DNA from: Bdellovibrionales bacterium
GTDB taxonomy: Bacteria; Bdellovibrionota; Bdellovibrionia; Bdellovibrionales; UBA1609
DNA length: 64,000 nucleotides
Reading direction: 5' to 3'
NCBI GenBank assembly: GCA_028819305.1
Contig: JAPPLY010000057.1
Coordinates: forward strand, 30,432-94,431
The position numbers and the translations under genes were made by a program. The notes beneath the pieces were generated by a model, which was given only the letters and a program-made list of their open reading frames with translations, searched no databases and was not told the origin of the DNA. This document shows positions 2-61,743 of the stretch, one piece after another (the stretch's first letter is position 1; every line of letters begins with the position of its first letter).

Positions 2-208
2 AAAACTCCTTATAATACTTACCGCATTTCTCGGTTTCCCGCGGGTCCGATTAGTAATCCGGGAGAGGAGGCTTTAAAAGCGGTCTTTAAACCTAAAAAA
101 TCGGATTATTTATATTTTGTCAGCCGAAACGATGGCAGCCATGTTTTTTCTAAAACTTATAAAGAACATAAAAAAGCTGTGGATCGTTATCAAAGAGCTT
201 TTAAATAA
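2..208 (+). CDS. mltG: Endolytic murein transglycosylase MltG/YceG, C-terminal fragment (5' end lies outside the window)
   Basis: Frame 2 reads KTPYNTYRISRFPAGPISNPGEEALKAVFKPKKSDYLYFVSRNDGSHVFSKTYKEHKKAVDRYQRAFK*, the conserved YceG C-terminal block. Stop TAA at 206-208. Confidence 0.8.
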   Translation, partial: KTPYNTYRISRFPAGPISNPGEEALKAVFKPKKSDYLYFVSRNDGSHVFSKTYKEHKKAVDRYQRAFK

Positions 209-261
209 GGGTACATTTATCATAGGTTTTATTAAAGTTCGCCAATTAAAACCCTTTGGGT

Positions 262-4702: not shown

Positions 4703-4913
4703 AGCCAGGGGGGGTTAATTGGTGCACTTCTTGGCAAAGTTGGTAAGCTAAAAAGAAAAACAACTCAATAAAGCCAGGGGGTTTAATTGGTGCACTTAAC
4801 TAGTTTATATGAAGTGTGATGGGGATACCTGGTTCAATAAGCCAGAAGATTTTTCCTGAAAGTAGTCTCTTTTTATAACACTCAATAAACCAAGAGGATT
4901 TTATTTGGTGAAG
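4694..4913 (+). repeat. Decaying tandem array of four copies of the dppC stop / RBS / start junction (family J related)
   Basis: actcaataaagccagggggggttaattggtgcactt 4694-4729; actcaataaagccagggggtttaattggtgcactt 4763-4797; ttcaataagccagaagatttttcc 4833-4856; actcaataaaccaagaggattttatttggtgaag 4880-4913. Copy 1 contains the dppC stop. Copy 4 contains the nagZ SD and TTG start. Confidence 0.8.
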
Positions 4914-5993
4914 AGTATGCAAACAAATGTTTCCATTTGGATAGGAATAAAAAGTTTTTCTTTGTCCCTGGAGGAAAAAAGAGCTATCGAGGAAGGCTTT
5001 ATTTCCGGAGTGCTTCTTTTTAAAAGAAATATAGAATCTTTATCTCAGCTATGGGAACTATGTCAGGAAATTCATAGTTTAAGACCGGCTCCCATCATTG
5101 CTATAGATCGGGAAGGGGGAGAGGTGGATCGCTTAAAACATCTCCCGGAGTATCCTCTTTGGCCTTCTCCAGCCGAACTGGCCCGGGTCTGTTCTTTAAA
5201 AGAGATTGAAAAAACCGCACTCTATATGTCTCAGGAAATAAGAGATTTAGGTATCTGTGTTAATTTTGCACCCTGTGTGGATATTCCCTCTGTATGTAAT
5301 CCTCTTTTTAAAGGCCGGCTTTGGGGAAAAAACTCAAAATCTATATCAGAAAAAGCGATCGCCTGGTTAAAGGGAGTTAAAAAAGCGGGATTAGCCTCTT
5401 GTGCAAAGCATTTTCCAGGTCATGGAGGAGTGAAGGAAGACTCCCATTTCGAGTTGCCAGTAGATCAAAGGAAATTTGAAATATTGAAAAATAGAGATAT
5501 CTTACCTTTTCAGGAAATGATTACGGAGAAAGTGGATATGATTATGACAGCACATGTGCTTTATCCTGAAGTGGATGCTCTTCATCCCGCCACTTTGTCT
5601 TCCTTTTTTTTACAAAAAGGGCTGAGAGAGAAAATGTCCTTTTCAGGACTGATTGTTTCTGATGATTTAGATATGAAAGCTTTGTATAAGGCCAATACTT
5701 CCTTACCGCAAGTTATGGTGCAGGCCCTGGAAGCCGGGGTGGATATTTTGTTAAAATGCAGTCCTTGTGCAAATGGATGGGAATGGGTGGAGGAGTTTAA
5801 GGAAGCTTTGAGTCAAAAAAAAATAGATCGGGAGCAAATTCAAAAAAATAAAGCAAGAGAGATTCGTATAAGTCAATTTAGGCAACAGTACTCTCACATA
5901 AAACCCTGTTCGTCTTTTAAAGGCTTAAAAAAAAGGTCCCAAAGTTTTGGGAACTGGTGTGATGAGTTACACAAAAGAATAGAGTCCATATAA
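4905..5993 (+). CDS. nagZ: Beta-N-acetylhexosaminidase NagZ (GH3, peptidoglycan recycling)
   Basis: AKHFPGHGGVKEDSHFELP (KHFPGHG...DSH motif) and GLIVSDDLDMKAL. SD aagagga lies 6 nt before the TTG at 4905. Confidence 0.85.
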   Translation: MVKSMQTNVSIWIGIKSFSLSLEEKRAIEEGFISGVLLFKRNIESLSQLWELCQEIHSLRPAPIIAIDREGGEVDRLKHLPEYPLWPSPAELARVCSLKEIEKTALYMSQEIRDLGICVNFAPCVDIPSVCNPLFKGRLWGKNSKSISEKAIAWLKGVKKAGLASCAKHFPGHGGVKEDSHFELPVDQRKFEILKNRDILPFQEMITEKVDMIMTAHVLYPEVDALHPATLSSFFLQKGLREKMSFSGLIVSDDLDMKALYKANTSLPQVMVQALEAGVDILLKCSPCANGWEWVEEFKEALSQKKIDREQIQKNKAREIRISQFRQQYSHIKPCSSFKGLKKRSQSFGNWCDELHKRIESI

Positions 5994-6109
5994 TAAGAGT
6001 TTAAAACACGATGGGTCTAATTTTAGAGATTAGGTTTTTTTTGTTATTATGAATTGATGGTATAATAAAGTTATTAGTGTTTTTTGTTTAAAAGGGATGG
6101 AAAAAAATA
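5901..6109 (+). repeat. Direct repeat DR1 (209 bp): last 93 nt of nagZ plus 116 nt downstream
   Basis: Read base by base against 6781-6990. The two are identical except for an A8 versus A9 homopolymer (5927-5934 vs 6807-6815). Confidence 0.95.
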
Positions 6110-6229: not shown

Positions 6230-6363
6230 ATACTTGGCAAGTTGAGTTCTTCGGGGGAAGTTTTTTATTATGATAATATACTCAATCCGGTTTGAATCCT
6301 CCAAGAGAAAAGAAACTTTGAAGGACGCAAATTCTATACCAGTTCGGATAGAATAAGGAACTT

Positions 6364-6570
6364 ATGAGACAAATTATCATTAAACCAGGGGAAGATGGGT
6401 TTTGGCTCGCTGAATGTCCTAGTTTGCCCGGTTGCCTTAGCCAAGGACAATCCAAAAAAGAAGCTATAAAAAATATTCAAGAAGCTGTTGAGGGGTATAT
6501 TGAAGTTTTACAACAAGATGGAGATCCCATACCTGAAGATAATATGGAATCTGTCATTGTAGCAATATGA
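6364..6570 (+). CDS. hicB: HicB-family antitoxin (UPF0150 fold, short form)
   Basis: 68 aa. EDGFWLAECPSLPGCLSQGQSKKEAIKNIQEAVEGYIE is the classic HicB N-domain pattern. ATGA overlap with hicA. Confidence 0.85.
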   Translation: MRQIIIKPGEDGFWLAECPSLPGCLSQGQSKKEAIKNIQEAVEGYIEVLQQDGDPIPEDNMESVIVAI

Positions 6571-6779
6571 GCAAACTCCCCGTCCTTTCTGGCAAAGAAT
6601 GTGCTCAAATATTAAAAAGATATGGATTTGAGTTTCGCAGGCAGAAGGGAAGTCATATCATTTTACGGCATAGCTCTTCTAAAATACTTCTTACAGTACC
6701 TAATCATAAAGAACTTGATAGAGGAACATTAAGAGCTATTATCAGGCAGTCAGGGTTAGATATGAAAAAATTTTGTTGA
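6567..6779 (+). CDS. hicA: HicA mRNA-interferase toxin
   Basis: 70 aa. LKRYGFEFRRQKGSHIILRH...LTVPNHKELDRGTLRAIIRQSGL matches the HicA/YcfA signature (GSH...H.. .l..gtl..Il.q.gl). Confidence 0.85.
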   Translation: MSKLPVLSGKECAQILKRYGFEFRRQKGSHIILRHSSSKILLTVPNHKELDRGTLRAIIRQSGLDMKKFC

Positions 6780-6780
6780 T

Positions 6781-6874
6781 AAACCCTGTTCGTCTTTTAA
6801 AGGCTTAAAAAAAAAGGTCCCAAAGTTTTGGGAACTGGTGTGATGAGTTACACAAAAGAATAGAGTCCATATAA
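6781..6874 (+). pseudogene. Detached, frame-shifted copy of the last ~31 codons of nagZ
   Basis: This is the portion of DR2 corresponding to nagZ 5901-5993. It has an extra A in the homopolymer, no start codon and no upstream gene body. Confidence 0.7.
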
Positions 6875-6990
6875 TAAGAGTTTAAAACACGATGGGTCTA
6901 ATTTTAGAGATTAGGTTTTTTTTGTTATTATGAATTGATGGTATAATAAAGTTATTAGTGTTTTTTGTTTAAAAGGGATGGAAAAAAATA
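6781..6990 (+). repeat. Direct repeat DR2 (210 bp), second copy of the nagZ 3' end plus downstream sequence
   Basis: Starts immediately after the hicA stop (TGA 6777-6779). See DR1. Confidence 0.95.
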
Positions 6991-7127: not shown

Positions 7128-8156
7128 ATGAATCGTTTTTTAGCTTTTTTTCTTGTGTCTTTTCTTTTGCACCTAACAGTAGGAGCTTTTCTGCTTTCTC
7201 GCTCTGGTGTGTTAGGGGGAAAAGGGGTAGAAAGCACGGAGTTAACTGACTTAGAAGAAGTTTCTATGGAAGCATCCCCAAGCGGAGAAACGGAAACAGA
7301 GATTTTAGAAAAAAAAGTAAAAAAAATAAAATCTCCCCCCCTTCCTAAACCAAAACCTAAAAAAAAGAGGAAGAAAAAACCGGTTAAAACTCCATCGGCT
7401 TCGTCTCCGCTAAAAAAACAAGCACCCCCGGTGACTAAGCCGCCTATTGTGTCTGAACCCGCTAAGACGAAATCAGATGGAAAAGAGAGGGAAGAGACAG
7501 TTTCCAAGCAAAAGCCGGACCAAGGGGAATCAGAAGAAGTACCTGAAAAAACTTTAGAAAAAAAGAAAGAAACAAAAGAGGAATGGGTGGATGAGAGCGA
7601 AATCGTGCCTCCCCCCACCTCCTCAGCTCCGCCTGAAAAAGCCGAACCAAAAGAAGAAAAAGAAGCTCCTCGTGATGTAAAAAAACAGGAGTCTCAAGGG
7701 GAGTTAAAAGAACCAAAAGCCTCTCCACCGATAGAGGGGGAAGAAAAAAAACCAGATGAAAACCAAAAACCTTCTGTTCCTCCACCGGGGGCGCAGATGG
7801 AAAAAAGCGAGGTTCCTTCTTTAGATGTGGGGGCCGCTCGTATGCACAACCAGTTAAAACAATTGGAAGGTAACCCCCTTCCCGTTTATCCTAAAGAGGC
7901 TTTAAAAAAAAGATGGGAAGGAAGAGCAGAGATATTTTATTATGTCAATCGAGCCGGGTTTGTGGAAAAAATTCAGCTTAAAAACTCCTCCGGGCATTCT
8001 GCTTTAGACAATGCAGCCCTTCGTGCTCTATCTCGTTATCGCTATTACCCGGGTCAAGAAGGCTGGGTCAAACATCCCGTGGAGTTTCTTTTGGATTTAA
8101 GTAAGGAAGTAAAAGAGATCGCTCCCTTAGGAACCTCCACCCCTCCTCCACAATAA
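7128..8156 (+). CDS. TonB-family energy transducer
   Basis: N-terminal TM (FLAFFLVSFLLHLTVGAFLL), a long Pro/Lys/Glu-rich spacer, and a C-terminal TonB_C block PVYPKEALKKRWEGRAEIFYYVNRAGFVEKIQLKNSSGHSALDNAALRALSRYRYYP. Confidence 0.8.
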   Translation: MNRFLAFFLVSFLLHLTVGAFLLSRSGVLGGKGVESTELTDLEEVSMEASPSGETETEILEKKVKKIKSPPLPKPKPKKKRKKKPVKTPSASSPLKKQAPPVTKPPIVSEPAKTKSDGKEREETVSKQKPDQGESEEVPEKTLEKKKETKEEWVDESEIVPPPTSSAPPEKAEPKEEKEAPRDVKKQESQGELKEPKASPPIEGEEKKPDENQKPSVPPPGAQMEKSEVPSLDVGAARMHNQLKQLEGNPLPVYPKEALKKRWEGRAEIFYYVNRAGFVEKIQLKNSSGHSALDNAALRALSRYRYYPGQEGWVKHPVEFLLDLSKEVKEIAPLGTSTPPPQ

Positions 8157-8245
8157 AGCCAAAGGCTTTTAATTGGTAAACTTATGTAGAATTTCTGTTT
8201 CCCCTGTCTTTCTTTTAAAGCCAAAGGTTTTTGTTGTTGTGAAAT
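8151..8245 (+). repeat. Two family J copies spanning the tonB-like stop codon
   Basis: caataaagccaaaggcttttaattggtaaactt 8151-8183 (contains stop TAA 8154-8156) and ttaaagccaaaggtttttgttgttgtgaaat 8215-8245. A further aaagccaaaaatctaatt lies at 9097-9114. Confidence 0.6.
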
Positions 8246-17201: not shown

Positions 17202-18239
17202 ATGAAGTTAGATAATTTTATTTCTCGAACTTTGACGGCGGTAGGGGCCTTTACCTTTTTCATTCTAGTTTGGTTTTTTTTTCCAGAAAAAGGAATGCCT
17301 TTGCTCGTCTTTGTCATTATGGGTGCTTTGGTTTGGGAATATGAACGATTGGTTTTTATGCCGAGTTGGTCAGGAAATAGCCGCCTTCCGAGTTTCTGTT
17401 CTCTTTTTGGAAAAAAGAGGACCCTGGAAAACCAAGGTTCTTTAGAAACAGGGAACTGTTCTCGTGAAAAAGAGGATCTATCCTCATCCCCCCCTTCCGC
17501 GAGTTTCGTTGGGAGTAAACCAACAGGGTACAATAAAGGCTTTTTTTTATTTTTTCTTTTATCTTCTTTATTTTTTTATTGTTTCTATTTTTTTAAAAAA
17601 CAAAATGTGCTGGAGTTATTTTTCATCTTCTTGTTTTTGTTTTTTGTTTTTGTTTTTTGGATTTTACATAAAAAAAAGAGGGAGCAGATTTTTCATGGAC
17701 TTTGTTTTAGTCTGGTAGGTTGGCTTTATATCGTTTTGCCTTCGGTTTTGTTTTTGGATATGTTTTTACATCAAAAAACGAACACCTGGATTTTATTTTT
17801 ATGTGTTGTATTTTTAGGAGATATTTTTGCTTACCTGGGAGGTCAGCTAAGGGGAAGTAAAAAATGGGCACCCGCTCTTTCTCCTGGAAAAACATGGTTT
17901 GGCTTATTTTGTGGTTTGCTGGCCAGTGGAATAGGTGCTGTGGTTTTAAGTTTTTATATAGATATATATGATGGACAACATGCTTCCCGCTTCGGGACAG
18001 AAATATTTGATTTCCCCTTTTCTTTTTTTCTTTTTATTTTTGGGGCTGTTTTGTTTTTTATTGCTCAAACAGGAGACCTATTCGTCTCTTTACTTAAAAG
18101 ACAAGCGGGTGTGAAAAACAGTGGTTGTTTATTACCGGGCCATGGAGGATTGTTAGACCGTTTAGATGGGCTTTTGTTGGCTTTACCTTTTGTGTATTTT
18201 ATAACTCAGTTGGATCCCTTTTTCATTAAAATCAATTGA
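17202..18239 (+). CDS. cdsA: Phosphatidate cytidylyltransferase (CDP-diglyceride synthase) carrying a 58-codon in-frame repeat insertion
   Basis: The C-terminal signature SLLKRQAGVKNSGCLLPGHGGLLDRLDGLL matches the CdsA S..KR..g.KD.g..iPGHGG.lDR.D motif. 345 aa, against the 285-aa E. coli CdsA as I recall it. Confidence 0.9.
   Translation: MKLDNFISRTLTAVGAFTFFILVWFFFPEKGMPLLVFVIMGALVWEYERLVFMPSWSGNSRLPSFCSLFGKKRTLENQGSLETGNCSREKEDLSSSPPSASFVGSKPTGYNKGFFLFFLLSSLFFYCFYFFKKQNVLELFFIFLFLFFVFVFWILHKKKREQIFHGLCFSLVGWLYIVLPSVLFLDMFLHQKTNTWILFLCVVFLGDIFAYLGGQLRGSKKWAPALSPGKTWFGLFCGLLASGIGAVVLSFYIDIYDGQHASRFGTEIFDFPFSFFLFIFGAVLFFIAQTGDLFVSLLKRQAGVKNSGCLLPGHGGLLDRLDGLLLALPFVYFITQLDPFFIKIN
17358..17531 (+). 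repeat. Family E repeat element inserted in frame in cdsA (174 nt)
   Basis: Starts atgccgagttggtcaggaaatagcc (compare caccgaaccggtcaggaaatcg at 57372). Ends gggagtaaaccaacagggtac (compare ggggatcaaaccagatcagtat at 40392). 174 = 58 x 3. Confidence 0.7.
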
Positions 18240-23395: not shown

Positions 23396-23986
23396 ATGTC
23401 TCTTTTTAATTATAACTCCAAGGAAATTCATTGTAAGGTCATCTATTACGGTCCGGTAGGAGCTGGTAAGACCACTAATATCAAATGGATCTGCCGAAAT
23501 ACTTTAGATCAAAAGTGGGATGTGTTTTCCATTCCTTTGCAGACAAAACCCAGCGCTTTCTTTGATTTTTTGCCTTTGGATATCGGTTCCATTCGGGGGT
23601 TTAAAACGCGATTTCACCTTTATACCATTCCGGGAAATGATTTATTTGAAACTTCTCAAAAACTCTTGTTGAAGGGAGTTGATGGTATCGTGTTTGTTGT
23701 GGATTCACAAAAAGGTAAAATGGAGGAAAATGAAAAATCTATGAACCAGCTAAAACAATATTTAAGTGAAGAAGGCTTATCTTTAGAAAAAATTCCTATG
23801 GTTATACAGTACAATAAAAGAGATCTACCGGATATTCATTCTATTACACATATTCGTACAGCCTTAAATTATTATAATCATCCTGATTTTTCAGCTTGTG
23901 CTGAAAAAGGGCAAAATGTTTTTGAGCCTTTAAAAACGCTTTTAAAGATGGTCCTTACTGTTCTGAAAGGGGGTCGTTTTCAATAA
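23396..23986 (+). CDS. mglA: MglA-family Ras-like small GTPase (gliding/polarity GTPase)
   Basis: Collinear with my recollection of the M. xanthus MglA sequence. NYNSKEIHCKVIYYGPVGAGKTTN, FFDFLPL, IRGFKTRFHLYTIPGN, LLKGVDGIVFVVDSQ, VIQYNKRDLP. Starts 2 nt after the recR stop. Confidence 0.9.
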   Translation: MSLFNYNSKEIHCKVIYYGPVGAGKTTNIKWICRNTLDQKWDVFSIPLQTKPSAFFDFLPLDIGSIRGFKTRFHLYTIPGNDLFETSQKLLLKGVDGIVFVVDSQKGKMEENEKSMNQLKQYLSEEGLSLEKIPMVIQYNKRDLPDIHSITHIRTALNYYNHPDFSACAEKGQNVFEPLKTLLKMVLTVLKGGRFQ

Positions 23987-24233
23987 TCCTTGAGTTTACT
24001 ATGTAATAATTTCTCCATGCGCCAAAGTTCTGAAAGGGGGGTGCTTTCAATAATCCTTGAGGAGAACAATCTGGAATTTTATTTTAAATGTTTTGAGATA
24101 AGGTCGTTTTCAATTCTTCTTAAAAAAGGTCTTTTACTGTTTGATGAGTTTGTTCCGTTTGGTTTTATTTTCTTAAAAATGGTTTTTATAAATTTATTAG
24201 TCAGAAAAGTGTTTCAATTATAGAATCTTAAGG
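23960..24233 (+). repeat. Decaying tandem array of copies of the mglA 3' end (stop-codon-spanning 35-mers)
   Basis: gttctgaaagggggtcgttttcaataatccttgag 23960-23994 (contains stop TAA 23984-23986); gttctgaaaggggggtgctttcaataatccttgag 24027-24061; gagataaggtcgttttcaattcttcttaa 24095-24123; tcagaaaagtgtttcaattatagaatcttaagg 24201-24233. The period is ~67 bp for the first three copies. Confidence 0.8.
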
Positions 24234-35638: not shown

Positions 35639-36601
35639 ATGGAAGAAATATCTTTTAAGCCTTTAAGTGAAGGTTTAGGTTTTTATGACCCTCCTTTACA
35701 GATTGGGGTTTCCGGTCCTTCTAAAAAAATAGCTGATTTACAGAAAAAGAATTTTTTATCCTCACCGGAATGGCCTGAATCTCTCCTATCTGGATCCTTG
35801 GACTTGGACAATTTACAAAATTATGAGCATCTTATATCTTTATTAGAAAAACCGTGGTTAGGAAAAAAGAGCTCGGGTTTTTTTTCAGGGAACAGATCTA
35901 TGATCCTGGAAAATAAGGAAGAAGAAAACCCAGCTTCTTCTCCTGTAACAAGAACCCCTGGTCTTTCTAAAAATCTTATAAAAAAAAACACTCAAGAGCC
36001 TTCTTCCGTATCACCGGTAAAAACCACTTTAGACCGCTCCGGTCAGGAATTTACGAACTCTGAACTTCGTTCATTTTTGGGAAAAAGCTTACGGAAACTA
36101 CAAAAGACAAGCCAGGTTAGTATATCCGCCTCGGACAAGAAGGATATTCTAAATAAAAATACTTTGACCGAACCGTCTTTAAATAAAAATCAGTTGGTTC
36201 CTAAAAAAACATTTTATTTTTCCTTAAAAGCTTACCTGGTGGATACCTTTATTATTTCTTTATTGTTTTTTCCGCCTTTTGCTTTATTTGTGTTTCTAAC
36301 TCAACCCGTTCCTATGGCTGTACTTCCATCGGTATGGCCTCAGATTCTGTTAACCTTTCTGTGTTTTTCTCAAATTTACTGTCTGTTATGTCGTTTGTTT
36401 TGTTTTGAAACCTATGGAGAGGCTCTTGCTAAGATAAGACTTTGCCATTTAGATTCTTCAAAAGAAGTGCATCCCTACAGATGGCTTTTGCGATTTTTTG
36501 TTTCTTGTGCCACTGGTTTTATTTTTCTCCCTTTGTTGTCTCTTATCTTTAGGAAAGATTTTACGGCTCGTCTAACGGGGCTTTATTTTCAAAAAATATA
36601 G
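35639..36601 (+). CDS. Membrane protein, possibly RDD family
   Basis: 320 aa. Soluble Ser/Lys-rich N-half. The C-half has TM helices and LKAYLVDTFIISLL ... ETYGEALAKIRL, reminiscent of RDD-domain proteins. Confidence 0.35.
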   Translation: MEEISFKPLSEGLGFYDPPLQIGVSGPSKKIADLQKKNFLSSPEWPESLLSGSLDLDNLQNYEHLISLLEKPWLGKKSSGFFSGNRSMILENKEEENPASSPVTRTPGLSKNLIKKNTQEPSSVSPVKTTLDRSGQEFTNSELRSFLGKSLRKLQKTSQVSISASDKKDILNKNTLTEPSLNKNQLVPKKTFYFSLKAYLVDTFIISLLFFPPFALFVFLTQPVPMAVLPSVWPQILLTFLCFSQIYCLLCRLFCFETYGEALAKIRLCHLDSSKEVHPYRWLLRFFVSCATGFIFLPLLSLIFRKDFTARLTGLYFQKI

Positions 36602-38513: not shown

Positions 38514-38557
38514 ATGGCTTAGAGCTTATATTGAACGAACCGGTCAGGATATGATAT

Positions 38558-39622
38558 ATGGATCTTCTGTTAAATAGTTCAGTGAAGAATATCTGGTATG
38601 CTTTTTATGAATTAAGGGTGAAAAAAACGGGGCAGGTTCGTTGTGGAGCTTTGTTAAAAGTAGAGTTTAGGGATGGAAAGACGGGTCATGCTGATCTTCA
38701 TCCCTGGCCAGAGAAAGGGGAAGCTCCCTTAAAAGTTCAATTGGACAAATTAAGGAAAAAAGAATGTACGACCTTATGTTCAAGGGTCTTAGCTATTGCC
38801 AGAGAAGAGGCAAAGGCACGAACACAGGAGTTTAATTTACTGAGTTCTTTAAAAATTCCTTTAAGTCATTACCTTATTTCGGATGTAGAAAATTTCTGCG
38901 ATTTAGATAAAGTATTAAATCAGGGTTTTCGCATTTTTAAAGTAAAATTAAATACTCCTTTAAAAAGACAAACACAAAAACTTTTAAGATGGATGCAGAC
39001 TTTAGGTTCTTCTGTTAAATGGCGTTTGGATTTTTATATAAAATTAAACGAGCAACAATGGCGGCGGTGGAGCGAGGAATATTTAGTTAAAATGGATACT
39101 CAATATTTGGATTTTATGGAAGTGCCTTTTCAGTATCAAGAGCGTCTGTGGATGCAATACGAAGAATATCCTTTGGCTTTAGATGTATGGAATGGAAAAA
39201 ATACCTTGCCTGTATCTACTTTAGTGTGGAAAAATTCCAGAAAAAGCGAACCAGAGCTGCTTAGAAAAAAAAGGGCTGGGCTTTTTCAAAGAGTCATTTT
39301 TACTCATAGCCTTTCTCATCCCTTGGATCAACTTTCCAGCGCTTACTTTGCTGCTCGATTTTATAAAATCCATCCTCATTTAAGAGAAGTGTGTGGCTTG
39401 GTTCAAAAGGATGTGTATGAAAATCATAAGTTCACTTTACCCGATCGAGGGCCTTGCTTCCCTCGTCTTTCCGGAAAGGGTTGGGGCTTGGATTCTTTTT
39501 TATTGGATCGTCTTTCCTGGAAGAAATGTTGTTCTTATACTAAACCGATAGAGAAAAAAGAGGCGATAGGAAGAGACTGTAAAGTTACAAAAAAAATAAT
39601 ACCCGCAGGGTATAAAAGATGA
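38558..39622 (+). CDS. menC: o-Succinylbenzoate synthase (enolase superfamily)
   Basis: KxK motif FRIFKVKLN, metal-ligand-like WRLDFY / LDFMEVPF / LALDVW, position between menA and menE, ATGA overlap with menE. Confidence 0.65.
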   Translation: MDLLLNSSVKNIWYAFYELRVKKTGQVRCGALLKVEFRDGKTGHADLHPWPEKGEAPLKVQLDKLRKKECTTLCSRVLAIAREEAKARTQEFNLLSSLKIPLSHYLISDVENFCDLDKVLNQGFRIFKVKLNTPLKRQTQKLLRWMQTLGSSVKWRLDFYIKLNEQQWRRWSEEYLVKMDTQYLDFMEVPFQYQERLWMQYEEYPLALDVWNGKNTLPVSTLVWKNSRKSEPELLRKKRAGLFQRVIFTHSLSHPLDQLSSAYFAARFYKIHPHLREVCGLVQKDVYENHKFTLPDRGPCFPRLSGKGWGLDSFLLDRLSWKKCCSYTKPIEKKEAIGRDCKVTKKIIPAGYKR

Positions 39623-40965
39623 AAACAGCTTTCTATAAAATTAATCCTTCTCAAGTGGATTGGGAATCAGAAAATTCCTTGGTGTTTTTTAATGAGAAGC
39701 ACGCAAAAAAAGATATTTTTGTATCTTCTATACCCCAGCTTCCTTATTTAAAATCACATGTATGGCTAGCTACCTCCGGTAGGGTTTGTCAAAAATGGGT
39801 CGCTCTTTCCAAGGAAGCTTTACTCACTTCCGCTCAAGCGGTTAATCGGCATCTCCATGTTACGGAGAAGGATCGTTGGGGGCTTTGCCTTCCTTTGTTT
39901 CATGTAGGAGGTTTAGCTATTTTAGCTCGTGCTCACCTATCTCATAGCTCTTGCTTTTTATTTTCAGGAAAATGGTCCGCTTCTTCTTTTTTGGCCTTTT
40001 TAAATCAAAATAAGATCACTTTGAGTTCTCTCGTTCCTGCACAAGTGTATGATATAGTAAAAGCTCAACACGCTTGTCCTTCTTTTTTAAGGGCGGTTGT
40101 AGTGGGAGGAGAAAGTTTAAACCCCATCCTTTACCATGCCGCCCGAAAGCTAAATTGGCCCTTACTTCCTTCCTACGGTCTTACGGAATGTGCTTCTCAG
40201 GTGGCTACAGCCGAGTTAGACACTCTTATACCGCACCGGTCAGAAACCCCTGCCGTTCCCCGCGAAGCCAGATTTCGCGAAAGCAGAGGCGAGGACCAGC
40301 TTCACAGAGGCATGTTTTCGAACTCCGCTTCCTCCCTAGAAGGAGCTTCCCTTAGGAAGGAGTTTACAAAAACCACAAAACCAGCCCTCCTGGGGATCAA
40401 ACCAGATCAGTATGATAAAATGGAAATGCCTAAAATGAAAACCCTTTCTCATGTTCAAGTTAAGATTATTCAAAAAAAAGTGGCTATTCAGTCCGGGAGT
40501 CTTCTTAGTGGTTTTGTATCTCTTTTACCTTCGTCTTCTCGTTTAGAGTTTCAAAACCCGAGTCAGGACGGCTGGTACTTTACCGAAGATAAAGGCTCTT
40601 TAGAGGGGTCTTTTTTACAAATAGATAACACGGCTCAAATAAAAATATTAGGAGAGAAAATAAACCTAGAGGGTTTGGAAGACACACTAATGAATATTGT
40701 ATTAAAAAAAAAAGAAATAGCGGGGCAATACATTCTTCTCCCTATACCTAGTGAGAGAGAAGGATTTCAAATAGCTCTTATTTCAGATGTTTTTAACAGG
40801 CCGGTTTTAGCTGATCTTATTCAGGAATTTAATAAGAAAGTCTCTCCTTTTGAAAGAATTAGGAAGTTTTATCTCGTTCCTGAATTAACTTTTACTGATA
40901 TTTCCAAACTTTCAAAGCAAGCTTTACTTAAAAAAATGGCCTTCTCTTCAGAAAAGCGGGCTTAA
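39619..40965 (+). CDS. menE: o-Succinylbenzoate-CoA ligase carrying a 62-codon in-frame repeat insertion
   Basis: Adenylate-forming enzyme blocks: LATSGRVCQKW (degenerate TSGTTG.PK), SYGLTECASQV (YG.TE), GWYFTEDKG, KILGEKINLEGLE. Men operon context. Confidence 0.75.
   Translation: MKTAFYKINPSQVDWESENSLVFFNEKHAKKDIFVSSIPQLPYLKSHVWLATSGRVCQKWVALSKEALLTSAQAVNRHLHVTEKDRWGLCLPLFHVGGLAILARAHLSHSSCFLFSGKWSASSFLAFLNQNKITLSSLVPAQVYDIVKAQHACPSFLRAVVVGGESLNPILYHAARKLNWPLLPSYGLTECASQVATAELDTLIPHRSETPAVPREARFRESRGEDQLHRGMFSNSASSLEGASLRKEFTKTTKPALLGIKPDQYDKMEMPKMKTLSHVQVKIIQKKVAIQSGSLLSGFVSLLPSSSRLEFQNPSQDGWYFTEDKGSLEGSFLQIDNTAQIKILGEKINLEGLEDTLMNIVLKKKEIAGQYILLPIPSEREGFQIALISDVFNRPVLADLIQEFNKKVSPFERIRKFYLVPELTFTDISKLSKQALLKKMAFSSEKRA
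40228..40413 (+). repeat. Family E repeat element inserted in frame in menE (186 nt)
   Basis: ataccgcaccggtcagaaacccc ... accagcttcaca ... aaaccacaaaacc ... ggggatcaaaccagatcagtat. The termini and internal blocks match the intergenic copy 56582-56769 (atatcgaaccggtatagaaccccc ... accagcttcaca ... agggatcaaacaagatcagtat). 186 = 62 x 3. Confidence 0.8.
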
Positions 40966-41077
40966 AAAGCCCCATACTTTCTTTTGTTTTGGGCTATATT
41001 CATAGAGTAAAAAATTTTTATCTTTGTCTGTGAAATCAGTGCTTAGTATCTTGAAAATCACTTTATGGGAAGTATGA

Positions 41078-41319
41078 ATCAGTGACCGGTAGGTATTAGG
41101 TTGCGTGTCTTAAAAATCCCTTCCTGAGAAGGGGGAGAAATATAAAATTTGGAAAAGAAATTCAAAAGCTTAAAAATTTCTGATAATTTCAAAAGCTTGG
41201 TACAAATTTGTACCGCTCCAGTTTGAACATTTCAGATATAAAAGCTTGGCTAACAAGGGGAAAAAGGCCGGGAAGTTACGAAAAGTAATACCCACCGAGT
41301 ATATCAGTGGAGTATATAG
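41078..41319 (+). repeat. Probable divergent family E element containing a 16-bp perfect palindrome
   Basis: Starts atcagtgaccggtaggt and ends atcagtggagtatatag. Interior has GGTACAAATTTGTACC (41199-41214) and three TTCAAAAGCTT-like repeats. Confidence 0.35.
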
Positions 41320-41536
41320 GTCAATTGTGGTAGTTATATTGTTTTTTATAGTTTATGTCGGATTTAGTTTGATCTCTGTGGCGGGGGCGAAGATGTGATT
41401 TTTCGGTTGTTTCGTTCTTTTTTCCCAAAGGAAGAGAGAAGGTTCCCCGTGCTATGCCAGTTCGGTATAATTGATAATTGCAGATGAATAGAAAAGAAAA
41501 TGGGAACAAAGTAAGGTAGAAGAGGTTTAGAAAATC

Positions 41537-42475
41537 ATGATAGAAGAAAAATCTTTTAACTTAAAAAGGGATTTTCCTTTGAATATTCCACAGATGGATC
41601 TTTTATATCAAAATCTGTTTTCAAGAGGAAAAACACTGAGAGCGACCATGACATCTCATGTGGCCGATTGTTTGAATATTTCTAAAGAGAAAAGCGATAA
41701 ATTGGGAAAAATAGTGGAATATATTCATCAATCTTCTATTTTACATGATGATGTGATTGATGCATCTCCTATTCGGAGAGGGGCTTTATCCAGTTGGATG
41801 CAGTATTCAGTAAGAAAAGCGGTTTTAGCGGGGGATTATTTATTAGCTCAGGCAGCGGAGCATACGGCTGAAATGAACAATATAGCTCTGATGAAGCTAA
41901 CGGCTAATGTATTAAAACAATTAGTAGAAGGGGAATGGTTACAATCCTCTCTTAAAAAGAGGGAAAGTATGCCAGAATTAGATAGAGTATCTAAGTTAAA
42001 AACAGCTTCTCTTTTTCAGTGGAGCTTAAGAGCTCCTTTTTTAATAGTGAATCGTTATGAAAGGGAGCTTCATCATTGCTTAGATCAGATAGGGGCTTTG
42101 ATGGGTGTTTTGTTTCAAAGAGCGGATGATCTGTTGGATTTTGATATTAGAAATAAGGAAAATAAAGCTCTTTTTAAGGACATGGAAGAAGGATATTTTA
42201 ACTCTTTTGCTGTATATCTGTCGGAGGGAAAGGATCCTCATTTTCGATCTCAGTTACGGGCCTGTCGTTCCTTAAAAGAGGTAAAAGTGCTTTTTAGGGA
42301 TCAGGAATTTAAGGATATTTTAAACTCTTTTGATGAAGAGAATAAAAAAAAGATACGGGATTGCCAAAATGAAATAGAGCATTCGCTCAAGTTAAAGCTT
42401 CTTAAGTCGGAGCAGTCTTTGATCGATCAGTTAAAACCTTGGCCTTGGCGGTTTTATTGGAGACAAAATGTCTGA
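41537..42475 (+). CDS. trans-Polyprenyl diphosphate synthase (likely menaquinone side chain)
   Basis: First DDxxD in SSILHDDVIDASPIRRG and second in FQRADDLLDF. 312 aa. Confidence 0.8.
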   Translation: MIEEKSFNLKRDFPLNIPQMDLLYQNLFSRGKTLRATMTSHVADCLNISKEKSDKLGKIVEYIHQSSILHDDVIDASPIRRGALSSWMQYSVRKAVLAGDYLLAQAAEHTAEMNNIALMKLTANVLKQLVEGEWLQSSLKKRESMPELDRVSKLKTASLFQWSLRAPFLIVNRYERELHHCLDQIGALMGVLFQRADDLLDFDIRNKENKALFKDMEEGYFNSFAVYLSEGKDPHFRSQLRACRSLKEVKVLFRDQEFKDILNSFDEENKKKIRDCQNEIEHSLKLKLLKSEQSLIDQLKPWPWRFYWRQNV

Positions 42476-52422: not shown

Positions 52423-53511
52423 TTAAAATTTTCCCAATTTAATAGAAAGAATTTTTTTAATCAAACTAGAAGGGTTTTTCTTTTGTAGGTTTTTAATGGG
52501 TACCCATGAGACCTTTGGCAAAGATGAGGAAGGTGCTTTTTTAGATACTAGAACATAAATAACATGATGAGTGATGGAATGTATAAAGTCATATCGTTTG
52601 GGGGGGACTTTCTTTCTAATAGCTTTTCCAGGAAAGAGGGGGTAGTTTTTTAGTACCGGTAAAGAGTGATGATGAGTTAAGGCTATTTTATTTTTTTTTA
52701 TATCCATCCGATTTGGATTTTTTAGGGGTGTCTTTTTTTCTTCCAAGGGCAAGCGGAGTTTGGAGGGTGTAAATTTCTGACTGGTTCGGTCTATTAACAC
52801 GAGGGGTTGCCAGAACCATATTTCTTTTTCCTTTTTTTCTTTTTTCAAGGGGATAAAATGTACTTGATTATGTTTAAGAGCTTTGCAGTTTTTTTTAAGA
52901 GGGCAGGCTGTGCATAGCGGTTTCCCGACTGTGCAAACAAGGGCTCCTAACTCCATTAAGGCTTGATTTAAAATGGAAGAAGGGTATTTTACCATCCACT
53001 GATCCACCTCCTTTTGTAAAATCTCTCTGCCTTGTTTGTTCCACCAGGGTTTTTTAAAATTAAGATAACGGGTGAGGACCCGAATGACATTGGCATCCAG
53101 CACTCCTGTTTTTTCATTAAAAGCTAAAGCGCTCACAGCTCTGGCGGTGTAGGGACCAAACCCGGGTAGTTTTAATAATTCTTGATGAGTTCGGGGGAAA
53201 GATTTTTTCTTACTAATGATTTGTGCGGACTTATGGAGATTTTTTACTCGGGAATAGTAACCCAGGCCAGCCCAGTAAGGGATAACTTCTTCCAGGGGAG
53301 TTTTAGCTAAAGATTCCAAAGTTTTAAATTTTTTAATAAATTTTTTGTAGTAGGGGATCACCGTGTTTACAGTCGTTTGTTGCAACATTACTTCCGATAC
53401 CCAGATAGGGTAAGGGTTTTTCTTTTTTTTTCTCCAAGGGAGAGGTCTTTTGTTTTGCCTATACCATTTAATAAGTTGATTTTGACTGGTTTGATGTGGA
53501 TTGTCTGACAT
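52423..53511 (-). CDS. mutY: A/G-specific adenine glycosylase MutY
   Basis: LIKWYRQNKRPLPWR, YPIWVSEVMLQQTTV, LPGFGPYTARAV, 4Fe-4S CTVGKPLCTACPLKKNC, C-terminal MutT-like domain. Confidence 0.9.
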   Translation of the reverse strand: MSDNPHQTSQNQLIKWYRQNKRPLPWRKKKKNPYPIWVSEVMLQQTTVNTVIPYYKKFIKKFKTLESLAKTPLEEVIPYWAGLGYYSRVKNLHKSAQIISKKKSFPRTHQELLKLPGFGPYTARAVSALAFNEKTGVLDANVIRVLTRYLNFKKPWWNKQGREILQKEVDQWMVKYPSSILNQALMELGALVCTVGKPLCTACPLKKNCKALKHNQVHFIPLKKEKKEKEIWFWQPLVLIDRTSQKFTPSKLRLPLEEKKTPLKNPNRMDIKKNKIALTHHHSLPVLKNYPLFPGKAIRKKVPPKRYDFIHSITHHVIYVLVSKKAPSSSLPKVSWVPIKNLQKKNPSSLIKKILSIKLGKF

Positions 53512-53549: not shown

Positions 53550-56500
53550 TTAATTGTTTTTTGGTAGAGCTTTTAATAAAATATTTTCCAGTTCGGCAAA
53601 ACGACTTTTATTTTTGATCGTTCCTTGGGCAAAGCGAGCCTGCCCTCCTCCTTTACCGTTCAGAAAAGGGGCGATGGTGTTTTTCAAAAGTTCTCCGGCG
53701 GAGATATATTGTTGTAGCTCTTTGGAAACAGTGATGACGAGAGGAAATTGCTTTTCCCCTTCACCTAAAATGACCACGATGGCGGGAGCCCTTTTGGATT
53801 TGAGTTGATCGGCTGTTTCCGCTAGTATTTTTCTATCTTCAATGGGCAAAGCTATACTTAGTAAATAGCCTTTTATATTTTGGTGTTCAAAGGGTTTTGC
53901 TTTTTTTATTAAATTGTCTAAGTTGAAAGAAGAAGTGATGTTTTCTAATTGCTTTTTAAGTGTTTTGATTTGTTCTTCTTGTTTTTGGAAAAAGGGAACG
54001 AAAATGGCATCTGTTTCTTCAAAATTTTTGGGAAGAGGGAGTTTTAAGTATTCTCTTAACTCTTCATTTTGATGGACTAAAAAATAAGGTTCTTTTGACT
54101 GAGTATGTTCAAAAGTTGTTTTCTCTGTAGTAAGTGCTTTCTTCTCTGAATTGGTCCTATTTAAAGATATTTTAATTTGAGTTTTTAAAGTTTTAATTTC
54201 TTCTTCTTTTTTTTGAAAGTAGTGAATAAAAGGATTTTCCCTTTCTGGGGTGTTTGGTAAGGGAATATTTAAATATTTTCTAAGTGTGTTATTTTGTGTT
54301 TCTAAAAGAGAGAACCATTTTTTGGCTATATCACTTGTGTAAGCGGTGATTCTTCGCACTCCCGATTGCACACCCGTTTCAGAAATGATTTTAAAGCTGC
54401 CGATGTCGGAAGTGTTTTTTACATGAATCCCCCCGCAAAACTCCAAGCTCTCTCCCATTTGGATGACCCGTACTTCGTTCTCGTAAGTTTCTCCGGCTAA
54501 AGATAAAGCCCCTTTATGGATAGCTTCTCTATAAGGATAGGTGGCATCAGACACAGAGTGACTTTTTTGGATATACTCTATTACTTTATTTTCAATCGTT
54601 TTTAATTGCTCTTTGCTTAAGGGTTTAGAGTGACTAAAATCAAATCTCAGTTTTCCTGGTTCCACTAAGGAACCTTTTTGTCTAACAGATTTACCGAGGA
54701 TCTCTCTTAAAGCCTGATGTAGCAAGTGAGTGGCAGAGTGACTGGTGGCGATCAGCCGCCGGTGATCTGGATCTACGTGCATTTCACAAGCTTGGTTTGT
54801 TTTTATTTCTCCTTCTAAGATTTTTACTGCATGAAAAATAAAGTTCCCTTTTTTTTGACAATCCAGTACCTCTGCTTGGCCAGTTTCGGTTTTGATGATA
54901 CCTTTATCTCCAACAGGCCCACCCCCTTCCGGGTAAAAACAAGTTTTATCTGTTATTAAATATAACTCATTTTCATTTTGTTCTATTGTTTTTTCATATG
55001 AAACTGCCTGGTCGTCTATCCTTGTCCATAATGTTATTTTTAGCTTCCCATCTTTTTCTTTTTTTATAGAGCTTGAAGGACGGGGGCGTTGGGCGGCAAA
55101 AGAAATAATATTTTCATCCATTATGGGGTCGTCAAGGGGTTTTTCAATAAACAGGAGATGTGTAATCTGACTGTTCTCTTGATCTTTGTTGTAACCGGTA
55201 AATTCTGTTTTTGTTATGGGATTCGATTTATATTCTCTCGAGTTTAATTGCTGTATAGATTCCTCTAAATTTCTCTTTATACTTTGTTTTCTAAAGCTGG
55301 ATATGTATGTTTGTTTAAATTTCTCTAAATTAAAATTTTCATTAACTTCAAAACCTTTTTCTTTTGCGATAAGGCGAGTGAGATCAGGAGGGAACCCGTA
55401 AGTGCTGTAAAGGTTCCAGACAATAGAGTCGGGAATCGTTTTCCCTGATAGATTTTTTATTTTTTGAAGTAAAATATTTTTCCCCATTTCTAAGCTTTCC
55501 GTGAAAAGCTCCGATTCGGCTTTTATGGTGGAATCAATCAGGGTATTTTCTTCACTTAATTCCGGGTAGATGTTCTCCATTAAATGAGTCACTTGTTTAA
55601 CAGCAATAGATAAAAGGTTTTTATTTTTTGTTAATTTTTGGCTATAAAATAAAGCTCTTCTTAAAATGCGTCTCAGGACATAGCTAGCCCCATCGCTTCC
55701 TGGTAATACCCCATCGCAAATAAGAAAAGCAATGGCGCGGCTGTGATCCGCTATAACTCGAAAAGCCACTTGCTCTTCATTGAGATGGGTTTGGGTAAAA
55801 TCATATTTTACATCAGAGGCTTTTTCTAAACATTTTATAATCCCTTTAAAAAGATCGGTGTGATAGTTGCTTTTTTCCCCTTGTAAAACTGCCGCCAGCC
55901 GCTCCAATCCCATACCCGTATCCACACAAGGCTTAGGCAATGGTGCTTTTCTTCCGGACCGATCTTCATTAAACTCCATAAAAACCAGGTTCCATATCTC
56001 CGTCATATCTTCCGGTAGAGGATTTTTTTTTGGTCCATCATAATAGTAAATTTCCGAACAGGGACCGCAGGGTCCGGTGTCTCCCATGCGCCAAAAGTTA
56101 TCTTTTTCGTCCAGGAAGAATATTTTTTCTAGCGAAACCTTTTCTTGTTTCTGCCAAATTTCCGCACTTTCCTTATCTTCTTTAAAGACACTCACCCACA
56201 GCCGGTCTTTAGGAAGCCCTAATTCTTTTGTGAGAAAATTTATGGCGTACTCAATAGCTTGCTTTTTAAAGTAACTACCAAAAGAAAAAGAGCCTATCAT
56301 TTCAAAAAAAGTGTGATGATAAGGAGAGTAACCCACTTCTTCCAGATCATTGTGTTTTCCTCCCGCTCGCAGACATTTTTGAATACTGCAAACTTGTGTT
56401 GAGGGAGGGGGCTTTAATCCTAAAAAGCCATCTTTAAATTGATTCATTCCGGCGTTGGTAAATAAGAGGCTGGAATCTCCTTGCGGGATAAGGCTAGAGC

Positions 56501-56570
56501 TAGGTACCCAGGTGTGACCTTGGTGTGTAAAATAATGTTGAAATTTTTTTCTAATATCAGAACTGTTCAT
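53550..56570 (-). CDS. alaS: Alanine-tRNA ligase (1006 aa, longer than the AlaRS sequences I know; carries an internal 75-aa tandem duplication)
   Basis: MNSSDIRKKFQHYFTHQGHTWVPSSSLIP...DSSLLFTNAGMNQFKD, HHTFFEMIGSFSFG, editing-domain HSATHLLHQALR and C-terminal DHHA1-like GKGGGQARFAQG. Confidence 0.95.
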   Translation of the reverse strand: MNSSDIRKKFQHYFTHQGHTWVPSSSLIPQGDSSLLFTNAGMNQFKDGFLGLKPPPSTQVCSIQKCLRAGGKHNDLEEVGYSPYHHTFFEMIGSFSFGSYFKKQAIEYAINFLTKELGLPKDRLWVSVFKEDKESAEIWQKQEKVSLEKIFFLDEKDNFWRMGDTGPCGPCSEIYYYDGPKKNPLPEDMTEIWNLVFMEFNEDRSGRKAPLPKPCVDTGMGLERLAAVLQGEKSNYHTDLFKGIIKCLEKASDVKYDFTQTHLNEEQVAFRVIADHSRAIAFLICDGVLPGSDGASYVLRRILRRALFYSQKLTKNKNLLSIAVKQVTHLMENIYPELSEENTLIDSTIKAESELFTESLEMGKNILLQKIKNLSGKTIPDSIVWNLYSTYGFPPDLTRLIAKEKGFEVNENFNLEKFKQTYISSFRKQSIKRNLEESIQQLNSREYKSNPITKTEFTGYNKDQENSQITHLLFIEKPLDDPIMDENIISFAAQRPRPSSSIKKEKDGKLKITLWTRIDDQAVSYEKTIEQNENELYLITDKTCFYPEGGGPVGDKGIIKTETGQAEVLDCQKKGNFIFHAVKILEGEIKTNQACEMHVDPDHRRLIATSHSATHLLHQALREILGKSVRQKGSLVEPGKLRFDFSHSKPLSKEQLKTIENKVIEYIQKSHSVSDATYPYREAIHKGALSLAGETYENEVRVIQMGESLEFCGGIHVKNTSDIGSFKIISETGVQSGVRRITAYTSDIAKKWFSLLETQNNTLRKYLNIPLPNTPERENPFIHYFQKKEEEIKTLKTQIKISLNRTNSEKKALTTEKTTFEHTQSKEPYFLVHQNEELREYLKLPLPKNFEETDAIFVPFFQKQEEQIKTLKKQLENITSSFNLDNLIKKAKPFEHQNIKGYLLSIALPIEDRKILAETADQLKSKRAPAIVVILGEGEKQFPLVITVSKELQQYISAGELLKNTIAPFLNGKGGGQARFAQGTIKNKSRFAELENILLKALPKNN

Positions 56571-56581
56571 ATTTTTAAATT

Positions 56582-56769
56582 ATATCGAACCGGTATAGAA
56601 CCCCCGCTCCCGCGAGAACCAGCTTCACAAGGACCGGGTTTTCTCATTCCTACTTCTCCCCCAGAAGAGAATCACTACCTGATTCATATAAAAAATCGGA
56701 CAACATATTCTTGCCCTCCACTTGTGCGGGGGCAGGGTGCATGGGTAGTAGGGATCAAACAAGATCAGT
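56582..56769 (+). repeat. Family E repeat element (reference intergenic copy, between alaS start and recX end)
   Basis: atatcgaaccggtatagaacccccgctcccgcgagaaccagcttcaca ... gtgcgggggcagggtgc ... agggatcaaacaagatcagtat. It explains ORF-track entry 56481..56831. Confidence 0.8.
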
Positions 56770-56871
56770 ATAGAGCAATTACTGCTTTGTTATCAAGTTT
56801 TTATTTTTTACTTGTATGGCTATTTTTTTAGGATGTCCTTTGTTTATAGAAAAGATTGCTTTCCTTATTTT

Positions 56872-57371: not shown

Positions 57372-57700
57372 TCACCGAACCGGTCAGGAAATCGTATCTC
57401 TCAGAGGGTCTCTTTGGAAGATAAAAAAAGAGACCCTCGAAAAACTCTGTCTCCGCGAAGGTTGTTTCCACAAAATGACTCCTCGTGAAAACGGGGGAGT
57501 GGGGCTAGATTCCTGTTTCTACAGAATTGACAAGCTAGAGAAGTTTGTCCTTATGAGAACAGGGAGCGCGGGGACCTTTTTCCTCACGGACAGGGGGGAT
57601 CAAGGAGGACCGAAAATTTTAGGATATACAGAAAAAGACCTGTCCCTTGAAGGGGGGTAAGGGGGTAAGGGGGTAAGGGGGGATCAAATCAGATGAGTAT
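57372..57700 (+). repeat. Family E repeat element, long variant (329 nt) with a G-run microsatellite
   Basis: tcaccgaaccggtcaggaaatcg start. 10-bp perfect hairpin gagggtctct...agagaccctc. ccacaaaatgac block. Ends ggggggatcaaatcagatgagtat. It explains ORF-track entry 57367..57660. Confidence 0.8.
57652..57682 (+). repeat. (GGGGGTAA)n microsatellite / canonical G-quadruplex motif
   Basis: ggggggtaagggggtaagggggtaagggggg: four G5-6 runs separated by TAA loops. Confidence 0.9.
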
Positions 57701-61282: not shown

Positions 61283-61582
61283 AATGATTACTCCTTTTTA
61301 GGAAAGATTTTATGTTTATACCGGACAGATCAAGAATCCCCTTTTCCACAGGGACCTCTGTTTACGCCCTCCGTTTACTCTTGGGAGAAAAAAGAGGCTA
61401 TCGAAAAATGCAAACTAGACTGGTATATATACTCTAAAGTAAAACTTTTTTAAAGTAGGGAATCCCTTGAGTTCTTGTTGTCATTATTAATTTATTCTTA
61501 AATTTTTAACCTGTGCTTGTTTTTAGAGATATTATCTGTTATGTGTGGTCCTTTAAACTGAGTAGAGAAAAGAATTAAATTT

Positions 61583-61743
61583 ATACTGATCTTATTTGAT
61601 TCCCGCGACCCTGCTCCCGCAAAAGCAGGGGGCGAGGACCTTATCCCCGCTTCCGCGGGGATAAGGTTTTGTGCTTTCTGTAAGCTTCTTCCGAGGAGGT
61701 GAGCGGAGTTTGAAATTCGCAATTTCTATATCGGGTCAGTATC
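61583..61743 (-). repeat. Family E repeat element (termini in reverse orientation, mosaic interior)
   Basis: The left end atactgatcttatttgattccc is the reverse complement of gggaatcaaataagatcagtat. Hairpins ccctgctcccgcaaaagcaggg and cttatccccgcttccgcggggataag. Right end ctatatcgggtcagtat. Confidence 0.7.

Follow-up and report, generated by a model that had tools for sequence, protein, structure and literature searches.

An in-frame miniature inverted-repeat transposable element in a menE-like gene of an uncultured Bdellovibrionales bacterium

A 62-codon insert in the menE-like gene

A menE-like open reading frame (ORF) carrying 62 extra codons was analyzed in a 64,000-nt stretch of contig JAPPLY010000057.1 (assembly GCA_028819305.1, Bdellovibrionales bacterium; hereafter the window). 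The ORF is the last of a run ordered menB-menA-menC-menE, and the genes upstream of it, an enoyl-CoA hydratase/MenB-type ORF, menA (UbiA) and menC (OSBS), are all intact. The extra segment is a copy of a MITE (miniature inverted-repeat transposable element), which we consider very probably to be a non-autonomous, in-frame passenger tolerated by a functional host gene. The features of the locus are as follows.

39619–40965, plus strand: menE-like ORF, 448 aa, ~386 aa without the insert (from the ORF list)
40227–40228, plus strand: left copy of the TA target (from comparison of filled and empty sites)
40229–40412, plus strand: MITE copy in menE, 184 nt, sense (from the family alignment and profile matches)
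40413–40414, plus strand: right copy of the target, now TG (TA at the orthologous site of the sister genome L010)

The product of the ORF matched the Pfam AMP-binding family (E = 1e-17), and its top matches by sequence in the PDB were the 2-succinylbenzoate-CoA ligases (MenE) of B. subtilis, S. aureus and E. coli. A Foldseek search with an AlphaFold2 model returned B. subtilis MenE (5x8f) as the top match (E = 1.5e-23). Judged by these matches and by the men operon, the host gene best matches MenE, as the original prediction had proposed. MenE of this clade (~380 aa, insert excluded) has ~100 N-terminal residues fewer than the solved MenE structures, query residue 74 aligning with residue 174–177 of the B. 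subtilis enzyme, and the P-loop region of the product (ATSGRVCQK) is atypical.

The insert occupies window positions 40228–40413 (186 nt, 62 codons), and the ORF stays open throughout. It begins with ATACCGCACCGGTCAGAAACCCC at 40228, finishes with GGGGATCAAACCAGATCAGTAT at 40413 and contains the internal blocks ACCAGCTTCACA and AAACCACAAAACC; its G+C content is 54%, against 37% for the window. The original prediction had described the segment by these termini and blocks, its 62 additional codons and its open frame, all of which the sequence bears out. Its length of 186 nt also stands, being the 184-nt MITE copy plus the duplicated TA target; the element proper runs from 40229 to 40412, and the predicted span describes this insertion with an offset of one base. 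The insert had been placed about 10 residues after the YG.TE motif, but the actual distance is 13 residues beyond the TE of YGLTE. The inserted peptide has the N-terminus IPHR and the C-terminus PDQY and is followed by D.

The copy in menE is bounded by a left terminal inverted repeat (TIR), TACCGCACCGGTCAG, and a right TIR, ATCAAACCAGATCAGTA. Between them lies the core common to the family, with an extra module of ~66 nt after the left end and an internal duplication of ~23 nt. A shorter form of the ~66-nt module is also found in the window copy at 56583, and the ~23-nt duplication in locus L007 of a related genome.

Lineage specificity of the 62 residues, also predicted, was confirmed by an alignment of MenE homologues (A1). 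A gap was seen at the insert in 23 of 24 homologues, the closest relative retaining a 15-residue remnant, and no unrelated MenE orthologue in A1 aligned through the 62 residues. In four further MenE lineages of A1, unrelated insertions of 20–100 residues lie no more than a few residues away from this site, which marks the loop as permissive.

A dispersed MITE family with TA target duplication

The segment had been predicted to be a copy of a dispersed intergenic repeat, with the same termini and internal blocks at 56582–56769. Plain BLAST of the window against itself gave only a marginal link, in which the insert matched 56582–56771 over a 21-nt terminus (E = 0.001) and over 57 nt at 75% identity. 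The copies are old and modular, with ~70–80% identity among them, which is why self-BLAST barely connects them. Profile searches place both segments in one family. The 3' terminus pattern GGGATCAAACNAGATCAGTAT has four occurrences in the window (0.01 expected), and the 5' terminus pattern has two (0.00 expected). A terminus scan of species-representative genomes located eight copies in CBDETO010000005.1, a 2.08-Mb contig of a related metagenome-assembled genome, and one in OZ251471.1.

An external nhmmer profile was built solely from three compact elements of 112–129 nt in a different genome (L006, L007 and L008), so that the test was not circular. In the window it matched 61642–61741 (E = 2e-16), 36033–36107 (E = 6e-13) and 40315–40412 within the menE insert (E = 8.5e-13). 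With a second-round profile, 40228–40413 was matched at E = 1.1e-15, and 11 copies were found at E < 1e-3 in the 64-kb window, amounting to ~1.6 kb or ~2.5% of its length. Family copies are also present in two other genomes. The match to the external profile confirms that the menE segment belongs to a dispersed repeat family, and the terminus patterns, far above chance, agree. The other window copies are listed below, in-ORF copies first.

36032–36122, plus strand: copy in the RDD-family ORF 35639–36601, 91 nt, in frame, sense; flanks TA/TA; encodes DRSGQEFTNSELRSFLGKSLRKLQKTSQVSI; external-profile nhmmer E = 5.9e-13; orthologous copy in L010
52701–52791, minus strand: copy in the MutY-like ORF 52423–53511, 91 nt, in frame, sense; flanks TA/TA; encodes DRTSQKFTPSKLRLPLEEKKTPLKNPNRMDI; second-round nhmmer E = 2.8e-9
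17364–17519, plus strand: degenerate copy in the CdsA ORF 17202–18239, in frame, sense, ~52 aa; right end decayed and boundaries approximate; nhmmer E = 1.4e-4 on 17358–17498
6279–6348, minus strand: short intergenic copy, 70 nt, upstream of a hicB-like ORF; flanks TA/TA; nhmmer E = 1.2e-6
34524–34649, plus strand: intergenic copy, 126 nt, orthologous to L010:4250-4376; nhmmer E = 7.2e-16
41356–41467, minus strand: intergenic copy, 112 nt, between menE and a polyprenyl synthase gene; flanks TA/TA; nhmmer E = 5.1e-9
56583–56770, plus strand: intergenic copy, 188 nt, the one named in the original prediction; flanks TA/TA; nhmmer E = 2.2e-13
57373–57699, plus strand: apparently composite copy, 327 nt; nhmmer matches at both ends
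61319–61425, plus strand: intergenic copy, 107 nt; flanks TA/TA; nhmmer E = 1.3e-9
61584–61741, minus strand: intergenic copy, 158 nt, the best external-profile match of the window; nhmmer E = 2.1e-16

Copy sizes range from 43 to 327 nt, and none contains a transposase-like ORF. The 327-nt copy has an internal right-end-like GGGGGGATCAAGG directly before a left-end-like GACCGAAAA, and a run of three GGGGGTAA ahead of its true right end; it may consist of two elements in tandem or nested. No match to the consensus or the menE insert was obtained by blastn against plasmid and phage collections. A peptide-level search for further insert-bearing proteins (profile A5, anchored on the 62 aa) returned nothing at E ≤ 10, and G+C spikes, tried as a detector of more in-ORF inserts, gave too many peaks to help.

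Aligned copies have a common left end, TACCGAACCGGTMWGGAA, and a common right end, GGGATCAAACMAGATCAGTA, which are imperfect inverted repeats of each other. The TIRs of the family take the form TACYGAWCYGGT...ACCAGATCAGTA, and a symmetric form with near-perfect TIRs of ~17–20 nt, TACTGATCTTGTTTGATCC...GGATYAAACAAGATCAGTA, is found in L002 and L003. TA lies on both sides of almost every well-bounded copy, and TIRs flanked by TA were seen in L001, L002, L003, L006, L007 and L010 as well as in the window.

Orthologous filled and empty sites were compared at three genes. At menE, the filled sites read CTCT-TA-[184 nt]-TG-ATAAAATGG in the window and CTCT-TA-[43 nt]-TA-ATAAAATGG in L010, and the empty site of a sponge-metagenome relative (L011, 77% identical protein) reads ACCTTG/AATAAAAT (ACC TTG/AAT AAA AT). 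At the RDD gene, an extra copy in L010 reads AAAAAAA-CA-[91 nt]-TA-ACTGATT, and the empty site of the window is AAAAAAATAGCTGATT. This extra copy (L010:5427-5516, 31 aa) is a second, private in-frame copy in the sister RDD gene, and the corresponding empty TA lies at window ~35725. At MutY, the window, L029 and L030 are filled (ATA-[91 nt]-TA-AAA), and L031, with an 84% identical protein, is empty (TTC ACT AAA). From these three comparisons the TA is the target duplication and lies outside the element proper, so the inserted length is the element plus two. Copies also vary by presence and absence between related genomes. All four features of a prokaryotic MITE are present, namely small size with no transposase gene, TIRs, target duplication and dispersed copies, and the element is accordingly a MITE with TIRs and TA target duplication.

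At menE, the L010 copy is 43 nt long and keeps both termini. Its likeliest origin is an internal deletion.

Inserts within genes and competing explanations

Four of the 11 window copies lie inside conserved ORFs (MenE, MutY-like, RDD and CdsA), all of them sense and in frame. Element lengths within ORFs are 184, 91 and 91 nt for the window and, for L010, 43 and 91 nt; every length is 1 mod 3, so with the added TA the reading frame is kept. The intergenic elements (70, 112, 107, 158, 126, 188 and 327 nt) leave mixed remainders. The 113-nt consensus has no stops in any of its three sense frames and has stops in every antisense frame. Sense-strand stops in the intergenic copies numbered 60 versus 109 expected from shuffles that count related copies as independent, which is suggestive of a depletion beyond chance. 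The core is read in one common frame (...EF.NS.LR..LGKK...) across all in-ORF copies; in the menE copy the left end is in another frame, and the extra module shifts the core back into the common one.

The other in-ORF copies were likewise compared with their homologues. Of the 15 sequences in a MutY alignment (A2), just the three closest, those of the window, P0122 and P0123, have the 31-aa insert, which separates the glycosylase domain from the C-terminal domain; the other 12, P0124 (84% identity) among them, lack it. The copy in the RDD-family membrane protein is common to the window and the sister genome. In the CdsA alignment (A6), the insert (aa 55–106) is missing in all eight homologues.

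Selection was measured as the ratio of non-synonymous to synonymous substitution rates (dN/dS). Three MutY pairs gave 1.20, 1.21 and 0.90 for the insert and 0.13, 0.14 and 0.15, respectively, for the rest of the protein. For the RDD gene (window versus L010) the values were 1.07 for the insert and 0.21 for the rest. The inserted peptides evolve neutrally, and the hosts are under purifying selection. For menE, the window and L010 orthologues, both insert-bearing, gave a dN/dS of 0.19, so that this gene too has remained under purifying selection since the insertion.

A structure prediction for the insert, proposed as a check on a surface loop, yielded a disordered segment amid a confidently folded enzyme. 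The AlphaFold2 model of MenE (25-sequence alignment) has a mean predicted local distance difference test score (pLDDT) of 79.9; residues 206–261 fall below 50 and show no secondary structure, and the remainder is mostly above 84. The insert is thus predicted to form a disordered loop, and menE is most likely still expressed as MenE carrying this loop of 62 residues.

The same data bear on the explanation that the insertion inactivated menE and left a pseudogene whose frame is open by luck. The insert begins only 13 residues past a catalytic core motif, in an enzyme whose clade is already ~100 N-terminal residues short of the solved structures, and its translation is something we infer. Such a gene would not be expected to show a dN/dS of 0.19 between two insert-bearing orthologues or a confident MenE-like fold outside the insert. 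Intact menB, menA and menC alongside it, and the recurrence of open, in-frame inserts in conserved hosts (MutY, RDD and CdsA), further argue against inactivation, which we regard as improbable.

Slightly less probable still is domestication of the insert as a functional module that would provide many proteins with a shared tag or linker. The single frame of the core in all in-ORF copies would fit such a role, as would the reduced number of sense-strand stops even in intergenic copies and the retention of inserts across speciation. The stop count, however, comes from a shuffle test in which related copies are treated as independent. Insert dN/dS values of 0.9–1.2 in four orthologous comparisons, against 0.13–0.21 for the hosts, are not those of a maintained module; nor is the MenE copy, which is down to 15 residues in the sister genome, and the insert is predicted to be disordered. 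Neutral dN/dS and the shrinkage in L010 identify the inserts as selfish passengers that need only an open frame, not functional modules.

Removal of the segment before mature MenE is formed, as a small self-splicing intron or an intein, is highly improbable and has no positive evidence in its favor. Inteins comprise at least ~130 residues and have an N-terminal Cys, Ser or Thr and a C-terminal His-Asn followed by Cys, Ser or Thr. At 62 residues the segment is too short, and it starts with Ile-Pro and ends with Gln-Tyr followed by Asp, so that the nucleophile and the His-Asn junction are missing. Rfam returned nothing at gathering scores across the window and nothing at E ≤ 1 on 40100–40550, and the same element occurs between genes with TIRs and TA duplications. 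An assembly artefact, with a repeat wrongly threaded into menE, is equally remote: although the source is metagenome-assembled and the element repetitive, in an independent Logan assembly (run SRR10996925) window 38619–41965, 3,347 nt including the insert, is reproduced at 100% identity, making misassembly very unlikely, a related insert occupies precisely this TA of menE in the sister genome, and copies of ~70–80% identity are too divergent for assembler collapse.

Several points weigh against a tolerated, in-frame MITE in a functional menE. The two TIRs of the copy in menE match imperfectly, at ~15 of 22 positions. TG stands in place of TA on the right side at menE, and CA on the left side of the additional copy in the L010 RDD gene, so that at these two sites the duplication is read through later point changes. 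Alternatively to an internal deletion, the L010 mini-copy could be an independent insertion, or a replacement by a short subfamily like L001:1231-1305, which would weaken the argument from the menE dN/dS. The insert dN/dS values rest on 31–32 codons and are noisy, and all sequences compared are metagenome-assembled. The evidence for the CdsA insert is weaker than for the others, with a profile E of 1.4e-4 and homologues just 34–47% identical. Finally, the window and ~110 kb of related loci (L001–L012) yielded neither a transposase nor a full-length insertion sequence (IS) with matching TIRs. We nevertheless favor the tolerated MITE.

Other, unrelated insertions of 20–100 residues, in several loops, were observed in many MenE proteins of this clade, namely the homologues P0007, P0010, P0011, P0013, P0032, P0033, P0039, P0041, P0046, P0067 and P0095 (A1). 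Some show motifs typical of translated repeats, such as ...VPAFAGMT..., and modules of the CGCGGGAATGAC type are also found in the MITE copy at L005:703-832. Insertion of repeats in frame may be a general feature of the lineage.

Origin, related systems and other repeats in the window

We propose that the MITE inserted at a TA in menE and duplicated it. It would have persisted there by virtue of a length, element plus TA, divisible by three, a stop-free sequence in the frame that is read, and a landing site in the loop behind the YGxTE motif, where extra residues would be tolerated. The copies in MutY, the RDD-family protein and CdsA would have passed the same filter. The high intragenic share most likely reflects a genome dense in genes, where TA targets between them are few, a sense strand free of stops, and the filtering out of insertions that were out of frame, antisense or structurally intolerable.

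The TA target and its duplication make the family a candidate IS630/Tc1-mariner derivative, and mobilization would have occurred in trans through a DDE transposase of this type. IS630/Tc1-mariner elements and the MITEs derived from them have the same TA insertion, 2-bp TA duplication and TIRs; for ISY100, insertion nearly exclusively at TA, with TA duplicated, was shown in vitro (PMC2170065). The link here is the target signature alone, as no cognate transposase or full-length IS was found in the loci searched. By inspection, the intervals between unpaired ends in L001, L004 and L009 held no transposase-like ORF of an autonomous partner. A metagenome scan with the TIR TACTGATCTKGTTTGATCC returned 16 loci (G+C 36–67%), of which at most two gave weak, terminus-only profile matches, taken as chance. 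The transposase may come from another part of the genome, or from an extinct or foreign source.

The original prediction had drawn an analogy with the Rickettsia palindromic elements (RPEs). This holds at the level of behavior, given three further in-frame, sense copies in window ORFs, and is claimed at that level only. RPEs are described as short repeats (~100–150 nt) found between genes and in frame within unrelated housekeeping genes, with host ORFs preserved, one consistent frame per family, and inserts thought to occupy fold-tolerant spots (Ogata et al. 2000, as summarized in PMC10969869). A large intragenic share, here 4 of 11, is a further likeness. The present family differs in its host phylum (the host genes are Bdellovibrio-like, MutY being ~48–51% identical to that of B. 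bacteriovorus) and in its clear TIRs, TA duplication and recoverable empty sites, which indicate a transposition mechanism. RPEs are not known to show a clear target duplication. The interior of the present family is also modular and appears only weakly palindromic. RNA folds of its copies gave z-scores of -3.4, -2.6 and -1.4, with pairing confined to the termini and to short local hairpins such as CCUCGC-GAAA-GCGGGG. We therefore describe the family as RPE-like in behavior and do not class it as an RPE.

Correia/NEMIS elements of Neisseria, and ERIC and related enterobacterial MITEs, are by description likewise abundant, ~100–200 nt long and bounded by TIRs; they are mostly intergenic, sometimes intragenic, and vary in size by internal deletion or insertion (PMC10969869, PMC3184786). 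Compared by description, they are mostly regulatory or intergenic and their intragenic copies usually disruptive, whereas in-frame retention is frequent here. Correia elements also duplicate TA. QMITE1 of Coxiella burnetii is a MITE of an organism rich in selfish elements that often overlaps ORFs and encodes basic peptides, but it spans 300–400 bp with variable direct repeats of 2–3 nt, in contrast to the 43–327 nt and fixed TA of the present family (PMC5896051). In-frame fusions by intragenic MITEs are known for ERIC, BOX, QMITE1 and Anabaena MITEs (PMC10969869, PMC5896051, PMC3184786), and are most frequent for RPEs, which occur in many unrelated metabolic genes (PMC10969869). A literature search for MITEs in Bdellovibrio-like bacteria found nothing relevant in the library searched. 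Both the MITE family and this case of a known phenomenon in an uncultured lineage are new.

In-frame selfish repeats in essential genes of Rickettsia are textbook examples whose mode of spread is not established. To RPE-like behavior the present family adds an explicit transposon signature, with filled, shrunken and empty orthologous sites available in related genomes and a direct measurement of inserted peptides drifting neutrally in constrained hosts. It offers a natural experiment on how proteins tolerate and accumulate disordered loops and on how the reading frame filters MITEs. For annotation, such inserts lengthen proteins and split homology matches in uncultured Bdellovibrio-like genomes; the PDB match of MenE breaks at the insert. 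The stop-free sense frames, the one consistent frame and the 1 mod 3 sizes would also fit a family specifically adapted to coding sequence, with a genome-wide gene occupancy rivalling or exceeding that of the Rickettsia elements, a reading we hold to be possible but doubtful. If true, it would be the first system of its kind beyond Rickettsiales for which a transposition signature can be identified, and a tractable model for the spread of 'protein-coding' selfish repeats and the origin of disordered loops.

Several further repeats were noted in the window.

38533–38550, plus strand: left-end fragment of the MITE, GAACGAACCGGTCAGGAT, between menA and menC
201–260 (minus strand), 2419–2459, 2468–2508, 2573–2632 and 8158–8198: short intergenic repeats, first set
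4688–4729, 4756–4797, 4874–4915 and 8142–8183: short intergenic repeats, second set

At the menA-menC position where the window has only the left-end fragment, L010 has a TIR-bounded element of ~535 nt (L010:8232-8768). Its ends are of the MITE left type in inverted orientation (TACCGGACTGGTATAAGA ... TTTCTGTTCGGTA), and it contains a Cys-rich ORF of 152 aa whose N-terminus is hydrophobic; MITE TIRs may thus be able to move a passenger gene. The two sets of short intergenic repeats represent one or two families unrelated to the MITE (GGGTTTTAATWGGTAAACTCCGTTAAAATCTATG and CAATAAAGCCAGGGGG..TTAATTGGTGCACTT).

Direct repeats of 210 nt at 5901–6109 and 6781–6990 (99.5% identical) bracket a small hicB/hicA-like pair and the MITE copy at 6279–6348, with 6365–6779 between. 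The pair is a putative hicAB by its translation, and the arrangement resembles a toxin-antitoxin cassette whose insertion duplicated the flanking sequence. Three repeats of ~35 nt, GTTCTGAAAGGGGGTCGTTTTCAATAATCCTTGAG, lie at 23960–24124 with a spacing of 63–67 nt. The alanyl-tRNA synthetase ORF (53550–56570, minus strand) encodes 1006 aa, longer than the typical bacterial enzyme, and PDB comparison is uninformative past residue 418; this ORF may also carry inserts.

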